Below, one piece after another: positions 1,978-12,826 of a stretch of DNA of 12,826 nucleotides. The notes under the pieces were generated by a model that saw only the letters and a list, made by a program, of their open reading frames with translations, was not told the DNA's origin and did no database searches. Each line of letters starts with the position of its first letter. The first letter of the stretch is position 1. The DNA comes from a virus (Duplodnaviria; Heunggongvirae; Uroviricota; Caudoviricetes). The DNA lies in the IMG/VR virus record IMGVR_UViG_2939167301_000004. One strand, written 5' to 3'. Made by a program: the position numbers and the translations under genes.

Positions 1978-2641
1978 GACAGCAGTCCTCTGGCCTTAAG
2001 CACTGCTCCCTGCTGGTCTATTTTGTCCTGCCACACCTTGCGCTGTGCCGGTGTGCCTGCCACCTCATAATCCATGTGAGGAAGTGTTGCCGCTGACAGT
2101 CCGGTCAGCCGGAGAACCGGCTCGCCGGTGAGGCTGATTTGCATCTGTTTAATTTTCTGTTCCAGCGATGATTTCACCTGCTGCATGACAGCCTTTTCCG
2201 GTGCGACGTAGCCCTGATGGCCGGTGGTGTTGGCGAGCGGATTTTCCTGTACCAGAATGCTCAGATGCATTGCCCGGACAAGCGCCTCACAGGTTTCATT
2301 CAGGGCGTGTTCCAGCTCATGCTCTGCATACAGACTCAGAAGGTGATGATGTGCCTTCCGGTAGGCGGTGGCCGTGCTGTCACACGCCCCTTTCAGGCGT
2401 TCGCGTTCAAAATTCAGCACCACGGCCAGATTGTCATATTCCTGTACCAGCTCCCGGCGTGCCACGCGCTCAATGTGGCGCTGTTTCAGCTCGTCGCTCA
2501 GGACACCACCGGCTGCACGAAAGGCCGTGCGCCAGTCGTCAGCGTCGTTTCCGTCGGCCTGCGCCAGCGCATTTTTTTCCTGCTCTGTGAACCGCCCCGG
2601 GAATCCTGGAGACTAAACTTCCTGAGAAAGAGGTAAACAGG

Positions 2642-2968
2642 ATGACTAAAAATACTCGTTTTTCCCCTGAAGTCCGTCAACGGGCAGTCCGTATGGTTCT
2701 GGAAAGTCAGGGCGAATATGACTCACAATGGGCGACAATTTGTTCCATTGCTCCAAAGATTGGCTGTACGCCGGAGACTCTGCGTGTCTGGGTTCGCCAG
2801 CATGAGCGGGATACCGGGGGCGGTGATGGAGGGCTCACCACCGCTGAACGTCAGCGTCTGAAAGAGCTGGAGCGTGAAAATCGTGAACTGCGCCGCAGTA
2901 ACGATATCCTTCGCCAGGCTTCCGCTTATTTTGCGAAGGCGGAGTTCGACCGCCTCTGGAAAAAATGA
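2642..2968 (+). CDS. IS3-family transposase OrfA (HTH)
   Basis: 108-aa ORF with the N-terminal HTH and leucine-zipper-like region typical of IS3-family OrfA. An A6 run (2960-2965) sits at the orfA stop / orfB start overlap. Confidence 0.9.
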
Positions 2969-3855
2969 TGCCACTGCTGGATAAGCTGCGTGAGCAGTAC
3001 GGGGTCGGACCGCTATGCAGCGAACTGCATATTGCCCCGTCAACGTATTACCACTGTCAGCAACAGCGACATCATCCGGATAAACGCAGTGCCCGTGCGC
3101 AGCGCGATGACTGGCTGAAGAAAGAGATACAGCGCGTATACGATGAAAATCACAAGGTATACGGTGTGCGTAAAGTCTGGCGTCAGTTGTTACGGGAAGG
3201 TATCAGAGTGGCCAGATGCACTGTGGCACGTCTCATGGCGGTTATGGGACTTGCCGGTGTTCTCCGGGGTAAAAAGGTCCGTACGACCATCAGCCGGAAA
3301 GCCGTTGCCGCAGGCGACCGCGTAAACCGTCAGTTCGTGGCAGAACGACCTGACCAGCTGTGGGTGGCTGATTTTACTTACGTCAGCACATGGCAGGGCT
3401 TCGTCTATGTGGCGTTCATCATTGATGTGTTTGCCGGATACATTGTGGGGTGGCGGGTCTCATCGTCCATGGAGACGACATTCGTGCTGGATGCACTGGA
3501 GCAGGCGTTATGGGCCCGTCGACCGTCCGGCACGGTCCATCACAGTGATAAAGGTTCTCAGTATGTATCGCTGGCCTACACACAGCGGCTTAAGGAAGCC
3601 GGATTACTGGCATCAACAGGAAGTACAGGCGACTCGTATGACAACGCGATGGCGGAGAGCATCAATGGTCTTTACAAAGCGGAGGTAATACACCGTAAGA
3701 GCTGGAAAAACCGTGCAGAAGTGGAACTGGCCACACTCACGTGGGTGGACTGGTATAACAATCGACGATTGCTGGAAAGGCTGGGCCATACTCCTCCGGC
3801 AGAAGCAGAAAAAGCTTATTATGCTTCCATCGGAAACGATGATCTGGCAGCCTGA
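2965..3855 (+). CDS. IS3-family transposase OrfB (DDE catalytic domain)
   Basis: 296-aa ORF in the -1 frame relative to orfA with an rve-type DDE core. The A6 run at 2960-2965 is a candidate -1 programmed frameshift site producing an OrfAB fusion. Confidence 0.9.
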
Positions 3856-4039
3856 GTTCACAGATAAAATACTCTCCAGGAAACCCGGGGCGGTTCACTG
3901 CCCGTTCAATGGCCGTGACGGTCTCATCCATCAGGCGGGCGTTCTCAAGATGGGCGGCTCTGGCCTTTTCCAGTTGTGCCAGTGCGGGTTGCAGATATTC
4001 AGGGATAGTGTGGTCAGACATTTTCCGGCTCCTCGTCAC

Positions 4040-4294: not shown

Positions 4295-4452
4295 CGTTGA
4301 TGGGCTTTTTATGCTGTTTATTACTGTTTATTTTTATTAATTCACTGAAATAAATAAGAAAAAACAATTTGTATTTCACTATAAAAAATTCCAGGTCCTT
4401 CAGAACCCTTTGAGACCCTTCCAGTCCAGATGGATAAAAAACACACAGCCAT

Positions 4453-4520
4453 TGTAAGGTTGCCGGAACAAATTCCCCCTGTTGCGTCTGCTGAAAATAT
4501 TCACAAAATAAAGCGCTACC
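4453..4520 (+). promoter_or_regulatory. Candidate PLL late promoter upstream of vis
   Basis: Perfect TGT-N12-ACA dyad at 4453-4470 and an imperfect one about 36 bp downstream; would place a start near 4516, about 55 nt before the vis ATG. Confidence 0.4.
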
Positions 4521-4572
4521 CGAAGCCGGACGGACTTATCCGGTGCTGTATGGACATTAACGAGGTAGCCCG

Positions 4573-4839
4573 ATGCAAGCTGTTTTTTCTTCCCCGTCTC
4601 CCGCCCCTGTTACGCCACTGATGCCGCTGCCGGACATCACGCAGGAGCGTTTTTTACGTCTGCCGGAAGTGATGCACCTGTGCGGCCTGTCACGCTCGAC
4701 CATCTATGAACTCATCCGTAAGGGGGAATTTCCGCCGCAGGTGAGTCTTGGCGGTAAAAATGTGGCCTGGCTGCACTCTGAAGTCACCGCATGGATGGCC
4801 GGGCGCATTGCCGGACGCAAACGGGGGTACGACGCATGA
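4573..4839 (+). CDS. vis: AlpA-family phage regulatory protein (P4 Vis / orf88-like)
   Basis: 88-aa ORF with the AlpA-type HTH signature (RFLRLPEV...[17 protein letters not shown]); GAGG Shine-Dalgarno 7 nt upstream. Confidence 0.8.
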
Positions 4840-5435
4840 TGATGCCCGCTCTGCAAAAACTCCCTTTTTCTGGCTTGCCTTTTTCCGGCATTTGCGGATA
4901 TAGTTTTTCCGCTGTCGCAAAATCGGCAGCCGGGCGTGGAAACCCGTGTAACTCGAAGGCGACATATGACGCGCCATGCGTCTTTTTTTGTGTCGCAATC
5001 AACGCCACAGAGCGCCAGATTATGGTGTGGTGTGTGGTCAGTCGTGCAGATGGCATTCCGTGCATCCTGCCCGCGTCCGCTCATTATGCCGCAGAGTCAA
5101 TGGTAGCTCAGGCGGGGCAGCCTCCGGGCTGGCCGGTATTCTTCGAGGCCGGTATTTCCACCCCCGTCTGGGCTATCGCCATTGAGCGTGGAAACTCCGG
5201 CGATAGCAGTTATTTGCTACTCGAAGGAGGCTGCCTTATGGCTACAACCCTTACCCCCTCACACCCTGAATTTGTCTTTGTGTTTGCGGCTGTCCGTCGT
5301 GCAGACCGTCATCCCCGTATCTGTATGCTTCGCACCGTCGCCGGTGATGAACGCAGTGCCCGCCGTTCCCTTGTCCGTGACTATGTGCTCTCCCTTGCTG
5401 CCCGTCTGCCGGTGGTGGAGGTGTCCCGTGCGTAA
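4836..5435 (+). CDS. Long open frame (199 codons) spanning the immunity region; possibly eta-like; coding status uncertain
   Basis: Its ATG overlaps the vis stop as ATGA (4836-4839). The N-terminal two-thirds is low-complexity and contains the candidate PLE promoter and a terminator hairpin. There is a strong internal start (GGAGG then ATG at 5238) giving a 65-aa product in the same frame. Confidence 0.35.
4875..4904 (+). promoter_or_regulatory. Candidate sigma70 promoter (PLE-like)
   Basis: TTGCCT (4875-4880), 18-bp spacer, TATAGT (4899-4904). Confidence 0.45.
4968..4989 (+). terminator. Intrinsic terminator-like hairpin in the leader (attenuator candidate)
   Basis: GACGC-gccat-GCGTC stem-loop followed by seven T residues, about 60 nt downstream of the candidate promoter. 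Confidence 0.4.
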
Positions 5436-5715
5436 TAAAAAAGCCCCTCAGACCGTCTCAGCACGTCATGACGCCCGTGAACACCTCAGCATTGAGGCTT
5501 ACCATAAGCTCAACCGCGCCAGCGCCGTATCCCGGTTTGTTGGGGGTGATTTGATTCACCGTGAACTCTCCGGCCTGCATCAGCTCTACATTCCGCATAT
5601 TTTCAGCTACCTGAATGAAGATATTGATTTTGTGCTGAATGAGCTGAAAGCCAAAGGCCTGTGCCGCGATTTTCTCGCCCAGCAGAAAGACCGGGGAGAC
5701 AGGACGCATGTTTGA
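5428..5715 (+). CDS. Small protein at the epsilon position (95 aa; candidate helper-derepression protein)
   Basis: GTG start with GGAGG 6 nt upstream; overlaps the stop of the preceding frame. Size and position match what I recall for P4 epsilon; the sequence itself was not verified. Confidence 0.5.
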
Positions 5716-6163
5716 TTTTCCCCAGCCCGGTGAGATTTACCGTTCTGCCGGTTTTCCCGATGTGGCCGTGGTCGGCATTCTGGAAGACGGTATTCCGTGG
5801 GAAATGCCATACCGCTGCCCGGAAATTGTCTGGAACCCGTACCGCCGTAAATTCAGTATCCTTGTGCGTATCCTCGCCGACGGGCGCACCACAGACATCC
5901 CGCTGGGGCGTTTTCTGCGGGAATTTACCTGTGACCGTCCTGACCTGTTTAAACGCAGCCCCGTAAACCGGCATGCGGTACTGAAAGAAATGGCCGGAGA
6001 CCCGGAATTACAGAAATGGCGGGAGAAATATCTGGATATTTACCCGCAGGACACTGTTCCGGTCAGCCGGGCAGCACCGGTAGCGCGGGAATGGCGGGAA
6101 ATTCCCCGCACGGAGCCTGACCCGGAAACCACCCCGGATAACAGTTACCGCAATTATCTGTAA
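5708..6163 (+). CDS. Hypothetical protein (P4 orf151-like)
   Basis: 151-aa ORF; its ATG overlaps the upstream stop as ATGTTTGA (translational coupling). Confidence 0.6.
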   Translation: MFDFPQPGEIYRSAGFPDVAVVGILEDGIPWEMPYRCPEIVWNPYRRKFSILVRILADGRTTDIPLGRFLREFTCDRPDLFKRSPVNRHAVLKEMAGDPELQKWREKYLDIYPQDTVPVSRAAPVAREWREIPRTEPDPETTPDNSYRNYL

Positions 6164-6633: not shown

Positions 6634-8967
6634 ATGAAAATGAACGTAACCGCCACCGTCAGCCATGCGCTCGGCCACTGGCCGCGTATTCTCCCGGTGC
6701 TGGGGATTCAGGTGCTGAAGAACCGTCATCAGCCCTGTCCGGTCTGTGGCGGGAGTGACCGCTTCCGTTTTGATGACAGGGAGGGGCGCGGCACCTGGTA
6801 CTGCAATCAGTGTGGTGCCGGTGACGGCCTGAAACTGGTTGAAAAGGTGTTTGGTGTCTCCCCGTCCGACGCGGCCGCAAAGGTGGCTGCCGTGACCGGC
6901 AGCCTGCCCCCGGCTGACCCGGCAGTGACGGCCGCCGCCGGTGCTGAAACAGACGCTGCCCGGAAGAACGCCGCCGCACTGGCACAAACCCTGATGGCAA
7001 AAACTCGTCCCGGAACCGGTAACGCCTACCTGACCCGCAAGGGCTTTCCCGGCCGGGAATGCCGGATGCTGACCGGCACACACAGAGCCGGTGGCGTGAG
7101 CTGGCGTGCCGGTGACCTTGTGGTGCCACTGTATGACGACAGCGGCGAGCTGGTTAACCTTCAGTTAATCAGTGCTGACGGCCATAAGCGCACCCTGAAA
7201 GGCGGACAGGTCAGGGGCACCTGTCACACCCTTGAAGGACAGAATCAGGCCGGAAAACGTCTGTGGATAGCGGAGGGATACGCGACCGCACTTACCGTAC
7301 ATCACCTGACCGGTGAAACGGTGATGGTGGCGCTTTCTTCCGTGAACCTCCTTTCTCTGACCAGCCTTGCCCGGCAGAAGCATCCGGCCTGTCAGATTGT
7401 CCTTGCCGCAGACCGTGACCTCAGCGGTGACGGCCAGAAAAAAGCCGCCGCAGCCGCAGATGCGTGTGAGGGCGTTGTTGCCCTGCCGCCGGTCTTCGGT
7501 GACTGGAATGATGCCTTCACGCAGTACGGCGGGGAGGCCACCCGTAAGGCCATTTATGATGCCATCCGGCCACCGGCTGAAAGCCCGTTCGACACCATGA
7601 GCGAAGCAGAGTTTTCCGCCATGAGTACCAGCGAAAAGGCCATGCGTATCTATGAGCATTACGGCGAGGCGCTCGCGGTCGATGCCAACGGCCAGCTTCT
7701 GTCCCGTTATGAAAATGGTGTCTGGAAGGTGCTGCCGCCACAGGACTTTGCCCGGGATGTGGCCGGGCTGTTTCAGCGTCTGCGCGCGCCGTTCTCCTCC
7801 GGGAAGGTGGCCTCCGTGGTGGACACCCTGAAGCTGATTATTCCGCAGCAGGAAGCCCCCTCCCGCCGCCTGATTGGCTTTCGTAACGGCGTGCTCGACA
7901 CGCAGAACGGCACGTTCCACCCGCACAGTCCGTCACACTGGATGCGCACCCTGTGCGATGTGGATTTCACCCCGCCGGTGGACGGTGAAACGCTGGAGAC
8001 CCACGCCCCCGCGTTCTGGCGCTGGCTTGACCGTGCCGCCGGTGGCCGTGCGGAAAAACGCGACGTGATTCTGGCCGCACTGTTTATGGTGCTGGCAAAC
8101 CGCTACGACTGGCAGCTCTTTCTGGAGGTGACCGGTCCCGGCGGCAGCGGCAAAAGTATCATGGCCGAAATAGCCACCCTGCTGGCCGGGGAGGATAACG
8201 CCACGTCGGCCACCATTGAGACGCTGGAATCCCCGCGTGAACGTGCCGCGTTAACTGGCTTCTCACTGATACGCCTGCCGGACCAGGAAAAATGGAGCGG
8301 CGACGGTGCCGGACTCAAGGCCATCACCGGCGGCGATGCGGTGTCCGTTGACCCGAAATACCGGGATGCGTACTCCACGCACATCCCGGCGGTGATTCTG
8401 GCCGTGAACAATAACCCGATGCGCTTCACCGACCGCAGCGGCGGCGTGTCACGCCGGCGGGTGATTATTCACTTCCCGGAACAGATAGCCCCGCAGGAGC
8501 GCGACCCGCAGCTTAAGGACAAAATCACCCGCGAGCTGGCGGTCATCGTGCGTCACCTGATGCAGAAATTCAGCGACCCGATGCTCGCCCGGTCACTGCT
8601 TCAGTCCCAGCAGAACTCAGACGAGGCACTGAACATCAAACGGGATGCCGACCCGACGTTTGATTTTATCGGCTATCTGGAAACCCTGCCGCAGACCAGC
8701 GGCATGTATATGGGGAACGCCAGTATCATCCCGCGTAATTACCGTAAATACCTCTATCACGCCTATCTGGCCTACATGGAGGCAAACGGCTACCGGAATG
8801 TACTCAGTCTGAAAATGTTCGGGCTGGGGCTGCCGGTGATGCTGAAGGAATACGGACTGAATTACGAGAAGCGCCATACCAAACAGGGGATACAGACCAA
8901 CCTGACGCTGAAAGAGGAAAGCTACGGCGACTGGCTGCCAAAATGTGACGACCCTGCAACAACCTGA
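6634..8967 (+). CDS. alpha: P4 alpha-type primase-helicase
   Basis: 777-aa ORF with an N-terminal Cys4 zinc motif (CPVCGG...CNQCG), a central primase region and a C-terminal P-loop NTPase (GPGGSGKS); AAGGAG Shine-Dalgarno. Confidence 0.9.
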   Translation: MKMNVTATVSHALGHWPRILPVLGIQVLKNRHQPCPVCGGSDRFRFDDREGRGTWYCNQCGAGDGLKLVEKVFGVSPSDAAAKVAAVTGSLPPADPAVTAAAGAETDAARKNAAALAQTLMAKTRPGTGNAYLTRKGFPGRECRMLTGTHRAGGVSWRAGDLVVPLYDDSGELVNLQLISADGHKRTLKGGQVRGTCHTLEGQNQAGKRLWIAEGYATALTVHHLTGETVMVALSSVNLLSLTSLARQKHPACQIVLAADRDLSGDGQKKAAAAADACEGVVALPPVFGDWNDAFTQYGGEATRKAIYDAIRPPAESPFDTMSEAEFSAMSTSEKAMRIYEHYGEALAVDANGQLLSRYENGVWKVLPPQDFARDVAGLFQRLRAPFSSGKVASVVDTLKLIIPQQEAPSRRLIGFRNGVLDTQNGTFHPHSPSHWMRTLCDVDFTPPVDGETLETHAPAFWRWLDRAAGGRAEKRDVILAALFMVLANRYDWQLFLEVTGPGGSGKSIMAEIATLLAGEDNATSATIETLESPRERAALTGFSLIRLPDQEKWSGDGAGLKAITGGDAVSVDPKYRDAYSTHIPAVILAVNNNPMRFTDRSGGVSRRRVIIHFPEQIAPQERDPQLKDKITRELAVIVRHLMQKFSDPMLARSLLQSQQNSDEALNIKRDADPTFDFIGYLETLPQTSGMYMGNASIIPRNYRKYLYHAYLAYMEANGYRNVLSLKMFGLGLPVMLKEYGLNYEKRHTKQGIQTNLTLKEESYGDWLPKCDDPATT

Positions 8968-9731: not shown

Positions 9732-10833
9732 ATGGCTCTGAGTGATGTGAAGGTTCGTTCGGCTAAGCCTGAAGCAAAAGCCTATAAGCTGACCGACGGT
9801 GAAGGCATGGTTTTGCTGGTTCACCCTAACGGCTCCAAATACTGGCGGCTACGTTATCGCTTTGGCGGTAAAGAGAAGATGCTGGCATTGGGGAAATACC
9901 CCGAAGTGTCGTTGGCGGATGCCAGGGCACGCCGGGATGAGGCTCGTAAGCTTTTAGCTAATGGTGTCGATCCCAGTGAAAACAAGAAAGCTGTTAAGGT
10001 AGAACAGGAACAAGAGGCGATAACGTTGAAGTAGTCGCCAGAGACTGGCACGCCAGCAATCAGAAGTGGTCGGCATCGCATAGCGCTCGTGTTTTGAAAA
10101 GTCTGGAGGATAATCTCTTTACTGCTATCGGTAAGCGGAACATTGCGGAACTGAAGACGCGGGATCTTCTTGTACCCATTAAAGCAGTCGAGTCATCCGG
10201 GCGGCTCGAAGTTGCCGCCCGTTTACAGCAGCGTACTACCGCGATTATGCGCTTTGCCGTTCAGAGCGGCTTAATCGACTACAACCCCGCGCAAGAGATT
10301 GCAGGTGCGGTTGCTACGGCGAAAAGACAGCACCGTGCAGCTCTTGAACTGAACCGTATACCTGAATTACTTCATCGCATAGATCACTATTCTGGCAGAC
10401 CGTTAACTCGGCTGGCGGTTGAACTCACTTTATTGGTTTTCATCCGTTCGAGCGAGCTGCATTTTGCCCGCTGGTCAGAAGTAGATTTTGAAACGGCTAT
10501 GTGGACAATCCCAGGTGAGCGTGAGCAACTGGAAGGAGTCAAGCATTCTCAGCGTGGCTCGAAGATGCGGACACCACACCTTGTACCTTTGTCGCGGCAG
10601 GCCCTAAGTATTTTGGAAAAGATCAAAAGCATGAGCGGAAATTGAGAGCTGATTTTTGTGGGCGATCACGATCCACGTAAGCCGATGAGTGAGAATACGG
10701 TGAACAAGGCTTTGCGCGTAATGGGGTATGACACGAAGGTCGAGGTTTGTGGGCATGGCTTCAGGACGATGGCTTGTAGTTCGTTGATTGAGTCGGGATT
10801 ATGGTCGAGGGATGCGGTAGAGCGGCAGATGAG
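9732..10833 (+). pseudogene. int: P4-type tyrosine integrase, inactivated
   Basis: N-terminal MALSDVKVRSAKPEAKAYKLTDGEG... is a P4-family integrase signature. There is a frameshift near 10020-10035, an in-frame TGA at 10643-10645, and a 3' truncation by IS629 at 10834 (about 368 codons retained; the catalytic C-terminus is missing). Confidence 0.8.
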
Positions 10834-10875
10834 TGAACCGCCCCGGGTTTCCTGGAGAGTGTTTTATCTGTGAAC

Positions 10876-11762
10876 TCAGGCTGCCAGATCATCGTTTCCG
10901 ATGGAAGCATAATAAGCTTTTTCTGCTTCTGCCGGAGGAGTATGGCCCAGCCTTTCCAGCAATCGTCGATTGTTATACCAGTCCACCCACGTGAGTGTGG
11001 CCAGTTCCACTTCTGCACGGTTTTTCCAGCTCTTACGGTGTATTACCTCCGCTTTGTAAAGACCATTGATGCTCTCCGCCATCGCGTTGTCATACGAGTC
11101 GCCTGTACTTCCTGTTGATGCCAGTAATCCGGCTTCCTTAAGCCGCTGTGTGTAGGCCAGCGATACATACTGAGAACCTTTATCACTGTGATGGACCGTG
11201 CCGGACGGTCGACGGGCCCATAACGCCTGCTCCAGTGCATCCAGCACGAATGTCGTTTCCATGGACGATGAGACCCGCCACCCCACGATGTATCCGGCAA
11301 ACACATCAATGATGAACGCCACATAGACGAAGCCCCGCCATGTGCTGACGTAAGTAAAATCAGCCACCCACAGCTGGTCAGGTCGTTCTGCCACGAACTG
11401 ACGGTTTACGCGGTCGCCTGCGGCAACGGCTTTCCGGCTGATGGTCGTACGGACCTTTTTACCCCGGAGAACACCGGCAAGTCCCATAACCGCCATGAGA
11501 CGTGCCACAGTGCATCTGGCCACTCTGATACCTTCCCGTAACAACTGACGCCAGACTTTACGCACACCGTATACCTTGTGATTTTCATCGTATACGCGCT
11601 GTATCTCTTTCTTCAGCCAGTCATCGCGCTGCGCACGGGCACTGCGTTTATCCGGATGATGTCGCTGTTGCTGACAGTGGTAATACGTTGACGGGGCAAT
11701 ATGCAGTTCGCTGCATAGCGGTCCGACCCCGTACTGCTCACGCAGCTTATCCAGCAGTGGCA

Positions 11763-11766
<4 letters not shown>
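10876..11766 (-). CDS. IS3-family transposase OrfB (copy B)
   Basis: 296 aa, one substitution (Q to R) relative to copy A OrfB. Confidence 0.9.

Positions 11767-12826
<1,060 letters not shown>

Follow-up and report, generated by a model that had tools for sequence, protein, structure and literature searches.

An open frame maintained through promoter and RNA elements in the eta/kil region of a P4-type satellite prophage

We analyzed a 12,826-nucleotide stretch of DNA (the window; IMG/VR virus record IMGVR_UViG_2939167301_000004) that, judged by its sequence, is a P4-type satellite prophage, with the region at 4836-5435 as its immunity and early leader region. This locus very probably carries the nested eta and kil genes of satellite phage P4, with eta read on late transcripts and kil as the first gene on transcripts from the internal promoter PLE. 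The evidence consists of the identity of the locus, its sequence elements, the maintenance of the long frame, protein-type selection found only in kil, and covariation in the RNA elements. The original prediction had treated the coding status of the region as ambiguous; for P4, this question already has a published answer, and the eta/kil arrangement is known. The modest point added here is that eta codons 1-134 are a maintained open reading frame (ORF) with no apparent selection at the amino acid level.

The eta frame and its nested kil gene

Positions 4428-5900 of the window share 96.9% nucleotide identity with satellite phage P4 (X51522/NC_001609), and the left operon has the gene order of NC_001609: vis/ORF88, the 4836-5435 frame, epsilon, ORF151, ORF106, and alpha. 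The region is also present at 100% identity in the chromosome of E. coli EJN001, where the Prokaryotic Genome Annotation Pipeline (PGAP) labels an ORF identical to 4836-5435 as "host cell division inhibitor Icd-like protein" (WP_000980237.1). The long frame and the gene nested within it are as follows.

4836-5435, plus strand: eta, 199 codons, ATGA-coupled to the vis stop, with PLE, the seqA leader, the cI RNA, and seqC inside it and kil as its final part
5238-5435, plus strand: kil, 65 codons, sharing the frame and the 3' end of eta; predicted Icd-like inhibitor of host cell division
5226-5230, plus strand: kil Shine-Dalgarno sequence GGAGG, 7 nucleotides upstream of the ATG at 5238

The vis stop codon (TGA, 4837-4839) overlaps the first eta ATG (4836-4838), two further in-frame ATGs follow at 4839 and 4842, and all three candidate starts lie upstream of PLE. 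Open from 4782 onward, the frame closes with the TAA at 5433-5435; an earlier ATG at 4791, inside vis, makes the mechanically called ORF 214 codons long. In P4, kil reportedly has 65 codons and eta, from its three alternative starts, 197 to 199. Overexpression of P4 kil is reported to kill cells.

By its sequence features, kil is a normal protein gene. NCBIfam phage_ICD_like (NF033153) matches Eta residues 146-193 with 72.1 bits (cut-off, 25); the Kil sequence is 100% identical to that of P4, and N15 gp32 (gene 32) and PY54 icd are homologs with 44-50% identity. For comparison among relatives, we searched with the Eta-frame protein, which returned 1262 proteins, took 80 loci from Enterobacterales genomes (48-90% amino acid identity), and removed near-duplicates, leaving 67 relatives. 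The kil ATG is present in 66 of the 67, with GGAG or GAGG no more than 16 nucleotides upstream in 64. Over codons 135-199, the ratio of nonsynonymous to synonymous substitution rates (dN/dS) is 0.26, against 1.39 and 1.47 in the shifted frames, and the entropy at codon position 3 divided by the mean of positions 1 and 2 (H3/H12) is 2.12. The 65-codon internal start with its strong GGAGG, proposed originally as an alternative product, is a genuine one, described for P4 as kil.

The upstream part of the frame behaves differently. Over eta codons 1-134, dN/dS is 0.82 (shifted frames, 0.86 and 0.83), H3/H12 is 0.85-1.08, and the GC contents of the three codon positions in the eta-only part are flat (0.56/0.54/0.57), unlike those of every neighboring gene. 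The controls gave dN/dS values of 0.22 for vis, 0.21 for epsilon, and 0.26 for ORF151, with H3/H12 values of 2.33, 2.23, and 2.30, respectively. Protein-type selection within the eta frame appears to be confined to kil.

The eta frame is nevertheless open more than chance would have it. A tblastn search with Eta gave one high-scoring segment pair in one frame in all 80 loci. No relative has a stop codon in the eta frame of the eta-only stretch (0 stops in 67/67); the +1 and +2 frames contain stops there in every case, on average 3.9 and 5.7, respectively. When the eta-only stretch was shuffled by mononucleotides, the given frame came out stop-free in about 1.2% of cases. We also assembled a second sample of IMG/VR loci anchored on Kil alone, which is unselected on the eta-only segment and contains only close relatives (Kil 89-100% identical; 79 usable loci); it serves to assess frame integrity, not deep divergence. 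The eta frame is kept in 76 of these 79 loci, and 9 of 12 indel patterns in this set have a net length divisible by 3. Among these 9 are compensated pairs of indels that are individually not multiples of 3 (a deletion of 1 nucleotide at 5208 with an insertion of 1 at 5236; a deletion of 1 with a deletion of 2) and the replacement of a 45-nucleotide module. It had been proposed that conservation restricted to the nucleotide level, together with frame-disrupting indels in relatives, would argue for a noncoding frame. The first half of this expectation is borne out for codons 1-134, which are conserved at the nucleotide level only; the second is not, as frame-disrupting indels are not tolerated.

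Coupling to the upstream gene is retained too. An ATGA or GTGA overlap joins vis and eta in 36 of the 58 relatives having vis. In 17 others, a more divergent subset that includes Pantoea, Erwinia, Serratia, Yersinia, and Rahnella loci, a 67- to 82-codon ORF is inserted that is itself ATGA-coupled to vis, and an eta-like start lies within about 16 nucleotides of its stop. A near-continuous chain of ORFs therefore persists in the relatives with the inserted ORF, which occupies about positions 2200-2490 in loci L055, L058, L063, L067, L071, L078-L083, and others.

These data bear on the view that the long frame is accidental, with only kil, or nothing, being translated and the ATGA overlap being fortuitous. 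Such a view would account for the lack of a protein-coding signature in codons 1-134 and for the old P4 record, in which only an internal 137-amino-acid piece was annotated, wrongly, as cI protein. It is hard to reconcile with a frame that is stop-free in all of 67 diverse relatives while the other frames always contain stops, with the rarity of open shuffles, with the compensation of indels, and with the conserved start/stop overlap or tight ORF chain; eta nonsense mutations in P4 are, moreover, reportedly polar and suppressible. We consider an accidental frame very improbable. The long frame is a maintained, translated ORF whose N-terminal part looks unlike a conventional protein. The overlap with vis from which translation starting at 4836 had been predicted is confirmed, and P4 eta is described as translated (PMC10111431).

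Promoter and RNA elements beneath the Eta residues

As the original prediction had it, the frame runs through a promoter, a terminator hairpin, and a regulatory RNA. The elements are as follows.

4875-4904, plus strand: PLE promoter (-35 TTGCCT, 18-nucleotide spacer, -10 TATAGT); eta codons 14-23
4911-4988, plus strand: short PLE leader RNA (Rfam isrK, RF01394; in P4-like elements, "SeqA RNA"), extending from the inferred start site up to the terminator hairpin
4927-4942, plus strand: seqA, the target upstream of cI; a 16-nucleotide inverted repeat, 88% complementary to 5155-5170 (seqB)
4968-4990, plus strand: intrinsic-terminator-like hairpin GACGCGCCATGCGTC (4968-4982) followed by a run of seven T residues; Eta block DAPCVFF
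5096-5183, plus strand: cI immunity RNA (Rfam C4 antisense RNA, RF01695), 76.7 bits (cut-off, 45); eta codons 87-116
5148-5170, plus strand: seqB, single-stranded part of the cI RNA that carries its specificity; core TTTCCAC (P4, TTCTCAC)
5186-5201, plus strand: seqC, the downstream target, complementary to seqB and a direct repeat of seqA (GCGTGGAAAC)

The TTGCCT-18-TATAGT promoter is the sole sigma-70-like site within 4400-5800, and its -10 coincides with a "consensus -10" feature of P4 record X02534. The hairpin at 4968-4982 with its seven T residues is likewise the only terminator-like one. The isrK match at 4911-4988 scores 71.3 bits (cut-off, 50) and is also found in P4 and in distant relatives. 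As for the cI RNA, a score above the gathering threshold, a covariation-backed structure, and complementary targets both upstream and downstream place it in the C4 antisense RNA family: none of its 28 consensus pairs is broken across 67 sequences, and 5 of them show compensatory double changes. The cores of seqA, seqB, and seqC covary three ways, with at least six variants (GTGGAAA, GTGAGAA, GTAGGAA, TTGGCGT, TTTGCAG, and TTAGCAG) in 66 of 67 sequences. The specificity core (4934-4943, 5153-5162, and 5186-5195) is GTGGAAA here versus GTGAGAA in P4, and the element is probably heteroimmune to P4, that is, of a different immunity specificity.

Within the cI RNA, the first hairpin/loop (5116-5125, GGCAGCCTCC) is complementary at 10 of 10 positions to the kil Shine-Dalgarno region (5226-5235, GGAGGCTGCC). 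We do not put this pairing forward as a conserved mechanism: most relatives carry a UUCG-type loop, and the two sites do not covary. The match may be lineage specific or coincidental.

The invariant residues of Eta follow these elements. L14 is encoded by the TTG of the PLE -35 hexamer and Y22-S23 by the TATAGT of its -10; AKSAAGRxNP is seqA, DAPCVFF is the terminator hairpin, the block ending in TPV is cI RNA, and ERxNS is seqC. The covariation of residues 35 and 119 arises from seqA and seqC, both of which track seqB. The composition of the eta-only peptide is odd, with an abundance of A, S, G, P, and C, but the description of its first 130 residues as low complexity does not hold: by a SEG-like measure, every 12-residue window scores above 2.2 bits, and the mean is 2.95 bits, against 2.80 in the kil part. 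Flanking the PLE -35 (4863-4889) is a near-tandem 12-nucleotide repeat (CCTTTTTCTGGC and CCTTTTTCCGGC, with a 15-nucleotide spacing), which gives Eta the repeated peptide PFSGLPFSG.

We favor, with moderate confidence, the reading that eta codons 1-134 are a "translated spacer." Across Enterobacterales, this ORF would stay open and tied to vis for the sole purpose of covering the promoter, the leader, and the cI region with ribosomes and blocking termination, and the peptide itself would be free to drift. Several points weigh against our reading of the locus as a whole. Pfam Phage_ASH (PF10554) matches Eta residues 22-146 with 82.2 bits (threshold, 26), which at face value denotes a protein domain. 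The variable segment at codons 52-86 has a dN/dS of 0.44 in frame versus 0.77 and 0.73 in the shifted frames, which may reflect weak amino acid constraint or a bias of the protein-guided alignment. Constraints from RNA and promoter elements lower the synonymous rate, so that dN/dS values near 1 are hard to interpret there. The relatives are phylogenetically nonindependent, and the 80-locus genome set was chosen with the full-length protein; in the Kil-anchored set, three singletons (loci L142, L149, and L159) were frameshifted, and locus L153 was truncated. Finally, what is said here of experiments on P4 eta/kil draws on a secondary summary.

A rival reading is a conventional two-domain Eta, in which a folded, functional N-terminal Ash domain is fused to the Kil/Icd-like domain. 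The Phage_ASH score, the occurrence in many genera of full-length homologs labeled "ash family protein," the frame that is always open, the dN/dS of 0.44 in the variable segment, and the listing of eta as a Bro-network protein gene (PMC10111431) all speak for such a protein. Domain-like purifying selection on the Phage_ASH part was, however, not found in its own frame: dN/dS equals that of the shifted frames (0.82 versus 0.86 and 0.83), third-position periodicity is absent (H3/H12 about 1), and the codon-position GC contents are flat, unlike those of all neighboring genes. The invariant residues are translated -35 and -10 hexamers, seqA leader, terminator hairpin, cI, and seqC; the covariation of residues 35 and 119 has its source in the RNA; and close relatives read segments in different frames after -1/+1 indels. 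An AlphaFold model of Eta has a mean predicted local distance difference test score (pLDDT) of 32.7, with no residue above 70; values are 24-39 over residues 1-140 and do not exceed 49 in the Kil part, which is weak evidence on foldedness. A PGAP "ash family protein" on an IncI plasmid, described below, likewise begins exactly on a C4 RNA match. We regard the two-domain protein as improbable.

That plasmid case is E. coli IncI-type plasmid pGF124.3-C (locus L164, 969-1191), in which traA and a NusG-family gene are immediately preceded by a C4-family RNA match of 77.5 bits. A 72-amino-acid "ash family protein" coding sequence annotated by PGAP starts on this match, and it looks as if the protein label follows the RNA. 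This part of the query had matches at about 920 plasmid places. The Pfam "Ash" family seems largely to model translated promoter and RNA elements. If codons 1-134 are indeed a translated spacer, the Pfam and PGAP label "Ash family protein" would mostly denote translated promoter and RNA elements rather than a protein domain, and Ash as a "Bro network" domain would need to be revisited. This caveat matters for the classification of satellite and prophage genes by the Phage_ASH domain.

Two small ORFs in other frames were also considered. The 46-codon ORF at 4966-5106 (plus strand) is present in another frame, as originally noted, but does not occupy the kil position assigned to it, kil being the 65-codon ORF at 5238; only 4 of 67 relatives retain its ATG, and no family match reaches the cut-off. 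A 69-codon ORF at 4976-5185 (plus strand), in the third frame, has its ATG inside the conserved hairpin, where it is kept in 37 of 67 relatives; its length in relatives ranges from 8 to 69 codons, and it has no family match. The proposal that one of these is a real leader peptide or toxin draws on a GAAGG located 6 nucleotides upstream of the ATG at 4966, within a repeat (ACTCGAAGG) that also precedes kil. Given the poor conservation of the first ATG, the retention of the second only through the hairpin, the variable ORF length, family matches that all fall below threshold, and a shifted-frame dN/dS of about 0.8, we judge it the least probable of the alternatives, with hardly any weight. We likewise rejected the 46-codon ORF as an orf45-like leader of an isrK system: in Gifsy-1, orf45 precedes anrP in the position that kil/icd genes hold, and the start of the 46-codon ORF is not conserved.

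The ACTCGAAGG repeat occurs at 4951-4959, before the nonconserved ATG at 4966, and at 5219-5227, before the kil Shine-Dalgarno sequence. Combined with the GCGTGGAAAC repeat, it makes the seqA leader in part a duplicate of the region from seqC to the kil ribosome-binding site.

A model of the switch and its gene context

Published work on P4 provides the framework. Kil is a truncated Eta that is translated upon read-through, whereas full-length Eta requires an upstream late promoter, so that eta is expressed from PLL transcripts and kil from PLE transcripts (PMC10111431, summarizing Forti et al. 1999). Transcripts are terminated via RNA interactions, and translation of eta prevents this termination (PMC10111431); the same source treats eta as a Bro-network protein gene. 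Translation of kil on PLE read-through reportedly prevents termination as well. The P4 SeqA RNA is described as structurally homologous to IsrK, and both seqA and seqC as pairing partners of CI (PMC4825925).

Applied to this locus, the model would run as follows. In a lysogen, the constitutive PLE would fire inside eta, yielding transcripts without the eta start, most of which would end early and be processed into the cI RNA (5096-5183). Its seqB would pair with seqA and seqC on nascent transcripts and promote termination. On these transcripts kil, with its own GGAGG, would be the first ORF and would be made only upon read-through. Once the late promoter upstream of vis is switched on, ribosomes would translate vis, reinitiate at the overlapping ATGA, and cross PLE, seqA, the hairpin, cI, and seqC into kil, and then pass into epsilon via another start/stop overlap. 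The unbroken chain of ribosomes would keep the transcript from termination; we infer that ribosomes over the leader, cI, and seqC would block both antisense pairing and access by Rho. In P4, termination at timm is reportedly Rho dependent. Here, positions 5200-5320 are C rich and G poor (GC skew, -0.23 to -0.29), a C-over-G bias that fits Rho loading at the kil start.

On this model, the immunity switch would be annotated with eta on late transcripts, kil first on PLE transcripts, and cI as an RNA, and the 46- and 69-codon ORFs could be ignored. The locus would illustrate cleanly how selection can act on the translation of an ORF and not on its product, and the known P4 model is unchanged.

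Existing P4 records do not reflect this arrangement. In NC_001609, positions 8168-8584 (corresponding to window positions 5022-5435) hold an in-frame 137-amino-acid ORF that both RefSeq and GenBank label "cI gene product / transcriptional repressor," while eta, kil, and the cI RNA carry no annotation in these records. Given the RNA-based immunity model (PMC10111431, PMC4825925), the "cI" protein label is obsolete.

The genes around eta and kil are as follows.

4573-4839, plus strand: vis (P4 ORF88), an ORF of 88 amino acids; AlpA-type excisionase/regulator, first gene of the late (PLL) left-operon transcript
5428-5715, plus strand: epsilon, helper derepression protein (Pfam Derepression, 170 bits), equivalent to P4p09
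5708-6163: ORF151, gene order as in P4
6634-8967: alpha primase, 777 amino acids, gene order as in P4

The vis product matches Pfam Phage_AlpA with 74 bits, and its P4 counterpart is P4p11, "excisionase and transcriptional regulator." The epsilon start, a GTG at 5428, lies within the end of eta/kil; the corresponding overlap in most relatives, between the kil stop and the start of the next gene, is gcATGA. Because the shared eta/kil stop overlaps the downstream start, the coupling continues out of kil into the next gene.

The whole block from vis and eta to alpha is bracketed by two inverted IS3-family copies of 1312 bp each that are 99% identical (2588-3899 and 10832-12143). Each contains an ALIL frameshift pseudoknot (2923-3039, plus strand; 11692-11808, minus strand). 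The left copy splits sid, with Sid amino acids 42-244 at 2585-1977 and amino acids 1-41 at 4021-3899, both on the minus strand, so that the element lacks an intact capsid-size gene.

Comparison with known systems

The closest system is eta/kil of P4 itself (Forti et al. 1999, J Bacteriol 181:5225). The locus is the same, lying between vis and epsilon with about 97% nucleotide identity, and shares with P4 the three ATGs, a start upstream of PLE, the ATGA overlap with vis, a 65-amino-acid Kil, and a frame overlapping cI, seqA, and seqC. The differences are that Eta here is only about 90% identical to P4 Eta, that a compensated -1/+1 indel pair (5208 and 5236 by pairwise alignments) gives different residues 124-134, and that the seqA/seqB/seqC core is GTGGAAA in place of the GTGAGAA of P4.

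The immI region of P1 and P7 (c4, icd, ant) has an RNA of the same Rfam family (C4, RF01695), processed from the transcript that it controls and acting on complementary targets up- and downstream, and it likewise has an Icd-like ORF (NF033153) followed by a coupled next gene. In our locus, however, the downstream gene is epsilon and not an Ant-type antirepressor. To our knowledge, P1 has no long upstream ORF that is coupled to an excisionase gene and reads through the RNA gene.

The isrK-orf45-anrP system of Salmonella Gifsy-1 (Hershko-Shalev et al. 2016, PMC4825925) is related through the leader at 4911-4988, which matches the isrK family. There, translation of the small ORF lets ribosomes proceed into the downstream gene (PMC4825925), and the short RNA acts in trans, activating translation of orf45-anrP; here, control would be exerted by cI-dependent termination and translational shielding, and an AnrP-like gene is absent.

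The secondary immunity regions of N15 and PY54, which contain a CA RNA and an icd-like gene, resemble our locus through the Kil homologs N15 gene 32 and PY54 icd. These are linear plasmid-prophages, in contrast to the satellite studied here.

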